Source: Escherichia coli (lineage in GTDB: Bacteria; Pseudomonadota; Gammaproteobacteria; Enterobacterales; Enterobacteriaceae). Taken from it: a stretch of DNA of 64,000 nt. The stretch lies in NCBI RefSeq assembly GCF_030013595.1, contig NZ_CP122768.1; one strand, written 5' to 3'. How positions within the stretch are numbered: the stretch's first letter is position 1; every line of letters starts with the position of its first letter. The position numbers were made by a program, and so were the translations under genes. Under the pieces are notes generated by a model. The model saw nothing but the letters and a program-made list of their open reading frames with translations, made no database searches and was not told where the DNA came from. Shown piece by piece: positions 32,862 to 32,906 of this stretch.

Positions 32862-32906
32862 TGGCGCGCCCTGCAGGATTCGAACCTGCGGCCCACGACT
32901 TAGAAG
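32862..32906 (-). other. Partial tRNA-Arg (argU) 3' segment: prophage attachment core at the prophage/chromosome junction
   Basis: Plus strand tggcgcgccctgcaggattcgaacctgcggcccacgacttagaag is the reverse complement of the anticodon-arm-to-CCA half of tRNA-Arg(UCU); the 5' half is absent, so this is a truncated copy, not a functional tRNA. Confidence 0.8.

Follow-up and report, generated by a model that had tools for sequence, protein, structure and literature searches.

Phages with tyrosine integrases of the P22-Int family target tRNA genes, and their integration follows the Campbell model. In Escherichia coli K-12, the attR site of the cryptic prophage DLP12 with its partial copy of argU, the gene for tRNA-Arg(UCU), was reportedly described by Lindsey et al. 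in 1989. DLP12 is integrated at argU (PMC6379469; PMC10057817), its attR has been given as 47 bp (Ramisetty & Sudhakari 2019, PMC6379469), and its excision has been reported in K-12 (PMC4632033). K-12 MG1655 has two directly oriented copies of a 45-nt sequence: one is the 3′ part of argU beside intD, and the other lies between ompT and envY at a distance of 21.3 kb. The MG1655 record lets 'cryptic prophage DLP12' span from argU nt 33 to the base before this second core. A related type of site is known from the P22/SfII/SfV-type phages, whose attP corresponds to the tRNA-Thr gene thrW.

We analysed a 64-kb stretch of E. coli DNA (the window) in which a comparable segment lies between envY and ompT. 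The minus strand of 32862–32906 reads CTTCTAAGTCGTGGGCCGCAGGTTCGAATCCTGCAGGGCGCGCCA, a sequence that is unique within the 64-kb window when up to 3 mismatches are allowed. It is identical at 45/45 nt to nt 33–77 of the 77-nt argU genes of K-12 MG1655 and STEC435, which are themselves identical to each other. None of 100 dinucleotide-preserving shuffles contained a match to the 45-nt argU segment. The copy starts with the first base of the anticodon loop and ends with the 3′ CCA, and it comprises the UCU anticodon, the 3′ strand of the anticodon stem, the variable loop, the T-arm and the 3′ acceptor strand; its 3′ end faces envY. The 5′ part of argU (nt 1–33) was absent from the 64-kb window at up to 3 mismatches. 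The initial annotation, which had described this segment as the 3′ half only of tRNA-Arg(UCU) in minus orientation, was therefore correct in coordinates, strand and description. Older gene tables of K-12 give the partial copy as the pseudogene pauD. A promoter/terminator scan gave no terminator-like site over 32862–32906, and a role of the copy as terminator of envY was rejected on this ground.

We regard it as nearly certain that 32862–32906 (minus) represents the core of attR in a DLP12-type lambdoid prophage that has inserted into argU. Identity with the argU-side junction continues for 2 nt past the CCA (TT, window 32860–32861), so that the full direct repeat measures 47 bp (32860–32906, minus). 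The two junctions attL and attR share CCA and TT and then diverge, and divergence at the upstream end is immediate. The outer end of the repeat is also the point at which the match with phage 2G7b begins (see below).

The window closely resembles DLP12 at this site. Both have the same locus (fimZ-argU … envY) and an identical 45-nt core followed by TT; the 70 nt of phage arm upstream of the core are identical as well, with 2 substitutions in the bacterial flank downstream. As in K-12, ompT adjoins attR, and lysis genes, bor and nohD are shared. By att core, arms and flanking genes (neighbours envY, ybcH and nfrA; the 2 flank substitutions mentioned), the prophage belongs to the DLP12 lineage. 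DLP12 of K-12, however, is a remnant of 21.3 kb that has appY and lacks head and tail genes, whereas the window prophage retains a whole lambda-like morphogenesis module (~46 kb for the prophage in relatives) and holds an alpha/beta hydrolase gene at the appY position. It is the prophage, and not the scar, that sets the window apart from K-12.

The similarity to SfII is of another kind. Integrase and attP arms of the P22/SfII/SfV type are homologous to those of the argU type (~75% over 765 nt), and the SfII attP core, like that of the window, consists of a tRNA 3′ part from the anticodon loop to past the CCA. The SfII core, however, is the 3′ part of thrW and not of argU, and the ~40 nt immediately upstream of it differ too. 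By alignment with the annotated SfII attP region, we assigned 32907–33028 (minus) to the phage-derived attP arm that adjoins the core. Its distal ~80 nt (window 32946–33028) are nearly identical to the attP arm of the thrW-integrating Shigella phage SfII (P22-type Int family; L024), whereas the ~40 nt adjoining the core are specific to the argU type. Because this distal stretch is near-identical while the cores and the adjoining ~40 nt differ, one scaffold of arm and integrase occurs with two tRNA cores, argU and thrW.

On the bacterial side of the core lies envY (32055–32816, plus), which was identified from the open reading frame list and from the annotation of relatives. As query for an unoccupied site, we fused two K-12 segments, the fimZ-argU flank and the stretch that follows the second core on its downstream side. 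Of 5,426 complete E. coli genomes, 2,494 have this empty site fimZ-argU-envY as one contiguous sequence, and the best matches were 100% identical. In strain M217, the annotated order is fimZ, tRNA-Arg, envY, ybcH and nfrA, and the tRNA is separated from the envY stop codon by 45 nt. The same distance of 45 nt lies between the envY stop codon and the tRNA 3′ end in the window, and only 2 of 100 bases of the window flank below 32862 differ from the M217 sequence downstream of argU. An unoccupied attB, with the tRNA gene contiguous with the outside flank, is thus present in other strains, and the earlier placement of envY outside the prophage is borne out by this direct succession of argU and envY.

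On the other side of the core, the phage arm is followed by ompT (33329–34282, plus), which encodes an omptin outer-membrane protease. Its assignment as cargo adjoining attR is based on the open reading frame, on annotation and on its position next to attP in free phages. The gene was detected in 3,094 of 5,426 complete E. coli genomes, which is roughly the complement of the empty-site set. The next genes encode an alpha/beta hydrolase of 494 aa (34469–35953, plus; cargo also in phages 2G7b and Turner), the remnant of a tail-fibre-assembly protein (36137–36442, minus) and a class I SAM methyltransferase (36499–37167, plus; ybcY in K-12), all identified by open reading frame and annotation. The hydrolase gene sits between ompT and the tfa remnant, which is the position of the regulator gene appY in K-12 DLP12, and it does so likewise in 2G7b and Turner. 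We also observed a match to the Rfam family IS009 (225.7 bits, 37265–37463, minus) inside a tail-fibre-assembly gene. A partial second copy of this region lies beyond the methyltransferase gene, in the tfa remnant, as a 132-nt repeat with 87% identity (36218–36349 versus 37267–37398).

The lambda-like tail and head genes occupy 37222–60879 (minus) and include tfa, stf, lom, J and the genes for tape measure, major capsid, portal and the large and small terminase subunits. This block ends at a cos junction near 60879/60880 and is followed by the late region with ylcI, ybcW, ybcV, bor, Rz and lysozyme genes (60880–64000). Both regions were assigned by open reading frames, the annotation of STEC435 and comparison with 2G7b. 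The prophage runs past the window end at 64000, which falls within the lysis genes. The large terminase gene (58245–60170) carries an in-frame amber codon at 58842–58844 (minus; GAG to TAG, codon 443 of 641 compared with 2G7b) and has no indels relative to 2G7b. Because of this amber codon, the otherwise near-complete prophage is probably packaging-defective. The public collection has 31 blocks in which the truncated 442-aa terminase product is indexed, and in GCA_900448395.1 it occurs in two different prophages of one assembly. In the chromosomal backbone ~21 kb to the left of envY, Rfam matches to the antitoxin RNA sok (11246–11400, minus; 83.7 bits) and to the sRNA ES036 (8912–8953, plus; 42.2 bits) were observed, which would fit the hokE/sokE locus of K-12.

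If the core between envY and ompT is attR, the arm on its ompT side and the arm on the intD side should be contiguous in a free phage. We reconstructed a 1,245-bp attP from the ompT-side arm of the window, the core and the intD-side arm of K-12. It was present as one contiguous sequence in the free phages 2G7b (NC_049954, genus Nesevirus), ev243, Turner and Kati, with 99.0–99.6% identity over the full 1,245 bp. The inner arms are thus contiguous around the core in all four phages. They also carry the same cargo block as the window prophage, and ompT, the alpha/beta hydrolase gene, the tfa remnant and the SAM methyltransferase gene lie between the tail-fibre genes and attP-int. The initial annotation had placed ompT and its neighbours inside the prophage, and the presence of ompT, hydrolase and methyltransferase genes beside attP in these phages agrees with this.

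The structural genes of the phages are collinear with those of the window prophage at 97% identity. In a blastn comparison of the window with 2G7b, homology started exactly at 32860, the outer end of the 47-bp repeat, and was collinear to 64000. It passed the cargo, tail and head genes up to the junction of phage coordinates 1 and 47142 (cos) at window 60879/60880 and then continued into the lysis region; window 37222–60879 matches 2G7b coordinates 17998–1, and the sequence beyond matches from 47142 downward. This order reads as the circular permutation that a Campbell integration through attP should produce. The start of homology at 32860 supports the earlier proposal that the partial argU copy marks the prophage end, and the same junction is the annotated end of DLP12 in K-12 MG1655. 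Megablast gave no match to 2G7b for window 37341–40819 (side tail-fibre gene) and 61290–62574 (ybcW/ybcV region), the flanks of which match at 90–99%, as is typical of lambdoid mosaicism. In the early region, relatives of the window prophage have genes for PerC, Dam and KilA-N, whereas 2G7b has lambda-like O/P and exo/bet/gam. Our literature search returned no relevant work on phages 2G7b and ev243 or on the anticodon-loop sublocation.

No intact argU gene lies in the window, which ends in the lysis genes, presumably ~14 kb short of the far prophage end. The direct repeat with intact argU was observed only in relatives; the best complete E. coli genomes are 98.5–99.8% identical across the prophage. 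In STEC435 (98.5% over 24 kb of prophage), a tRNA-Arg gene flanked by intD and fimZ is located 46.4 kb from the partial copy. A closer relative, GCA_900448395.1, was found via the truncated TerL protein and is 99.8% identical (31 mismatches in 15 kb). With the PerC gene at the far end of this locus as query, ten further loci were retrieved, and in nine of them the prophage is at the argU locus with the order fimZ, 77-nt tRNA-Arg(tct), 387-aa integrase gene. Seven of these nine match the last 4.4 kb of the window at 99.3–99.7%; the tenth locus (L023) stops before the prophage end and contains no tRNA. Judged by these relatives, the intact argU of the window prophage should be situated ~14 kb beyond the window end. 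One of the nine loci (L017; GCA_030297395.1, 1894–20000) has both att cores only 18 kb apart, and IS transposase genes stand in the place of its morphogenesis and late genes. Like DLP12 of K-12, which it resembles, it seems to be a deletion derivative, but one of separate origin.

Two other readings of the segment were considered. In the GenBank entry of phage Turner (PP925837), the attP core is covered by an annotated 84-nt tRNA-Pro (L005, 3564–3647), the sequence of which is identical to window 32862–32945 on the minus strand. The core might accordingly form, together with 39 nt upstream, a complete though unusual tRNA. An acceptor-like 6-bp pairing (GGCGCG/CGCGCC) and the genuine T-arm of argU indeed give the 84-nt element a minimum-energy fold that is loosely cloverleaf-like, and the Rfam tRNA model does score the region (24.8 bits, E=0.005 in a 401-nt search). 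This score, however, remains below the Rfam gathering score of 29 bits and is carried by the argU T-arm, and the Rfam alignment, which needs a 29-nt insertion and starts in another 5′ register, is inconsistent with the tRNA-Pro call in Turner. The putative D-arm would have 6 bp in its stem and 3 nt in its loop, so that a normal D-loop is missing. Moreover, the upstream 39 nt sit in the attP arm that is homologous to the SfII arm, where the bases differ and no equivalent pairing occurs. ARAGORN called no tRNA gene in the whole 64-kb window, and none in local runs on the att region or in Turner attP, even with lowered score thresholds and introns allowed. At curated thresholds, neither the tRNA finder nor the covariance model thus detects a cloverleaf at 32862–32906, which was the outcome anticipated by the initial annotation. 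A complete tRNA at this place is very improbable, and we consider it just as doubtful that these phages really express the 84-nt element (32862–32945, minus) as a tRNA-like RNA and that it is not an artefact of tRNA finders. The tRNA-Pro of Turner is probably a false positive that arose from the argU T-arm and the fortuitous GGCGCG/CGCGCC pairing.

The fragment could also be what is left, in decayed form, of a duplication of argU at this place or of an unrelated integration at an earlier time, in which case ompT and its neighbours would be chromosomal and the true prophage end would be located further right, near the tail-fibre genes. The tfa remnant among the cargo genes hints at an earlier rearrangement, and ompT is often discussed as a chromosomal gene. 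Free phages, however, hold ompT, the hydrolase gene, the tfa remnant and the methyltransferase gene at 99.4% identity to window 32860–37341, and in the genomes with an empty site argU is joined directly to envY. No second att core or tandem prophage was found in the window, and in no genome did we see ompT at this locus with an uninterrupted argU and without phage genes on either side. The probability of this second reading is close to nil. We therefore retain the assignment of 32862–32906 as attR core, with ompT and its neighbours inside and envY outside the prophage because of the empty site, the contiguous attP and the collinearity with 2G7b from 32860 onwards, three tests whose outcome does not depend on annotation.

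The sequence identities, the empty site, the contiguous attP of free phages and the collinearity with a free phage establish, at the sequence level, how attP, attB and the integrated prophage are arranged: argU is intact on the integrase side, and the displaced 3′ part is on the cargo side. The phage attP carries argU sequence from the anticodon loop to the CCA and 2 nt more, and argU itself is attB. IntD, a P22-Int-like tyrosine integrase, would exchange strands inside the 47-bp identity between attP and argU, as expected for Campbell integration. The exchange point would fall somewhere within the repeat; both copies are identical, which is why its exact position cannot be read from the sequence. 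Judged by what is known of the integrase family, from which the enzymology is also taken, the crossover probably takes place at that end of the 47-bp repeat which holds the anticodon loop. The resulting attL on the integrase side would combine the bacterial 5′ part of argU with the phage-derived 3′ part, so that argU stays intact. On the cargo side, attR (32862–32906) would join the phage arm to the displaced original bacterial 3′ part, which still abuts envY. The prophage comprises everything from 32907 to the right, that is ompT, the alpha/beta hydrolase and methyltransferase genes, and the tail, head, cos and lysis regions. The truncated argU copy would have no function of its own beyond that of an excision substrate.

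The scar at 32862–32906 is of a kind that the K-12 annotation already contains and that published work describes; it is textbook biology and raises no new question. It shows to the base where the argU prophage ends on the right, and its value lies mainly in correct annotation. Programs for tRNA detection may mis-call the argU att site, as the record of phage Turner illustrates. With this boundary, ompT, which encodes a protease relevant to virulence and protein production, and the hydrolase and methyltransferase genes are phage-borne cargo that is present in only ~57% of complete E. coli genomes.
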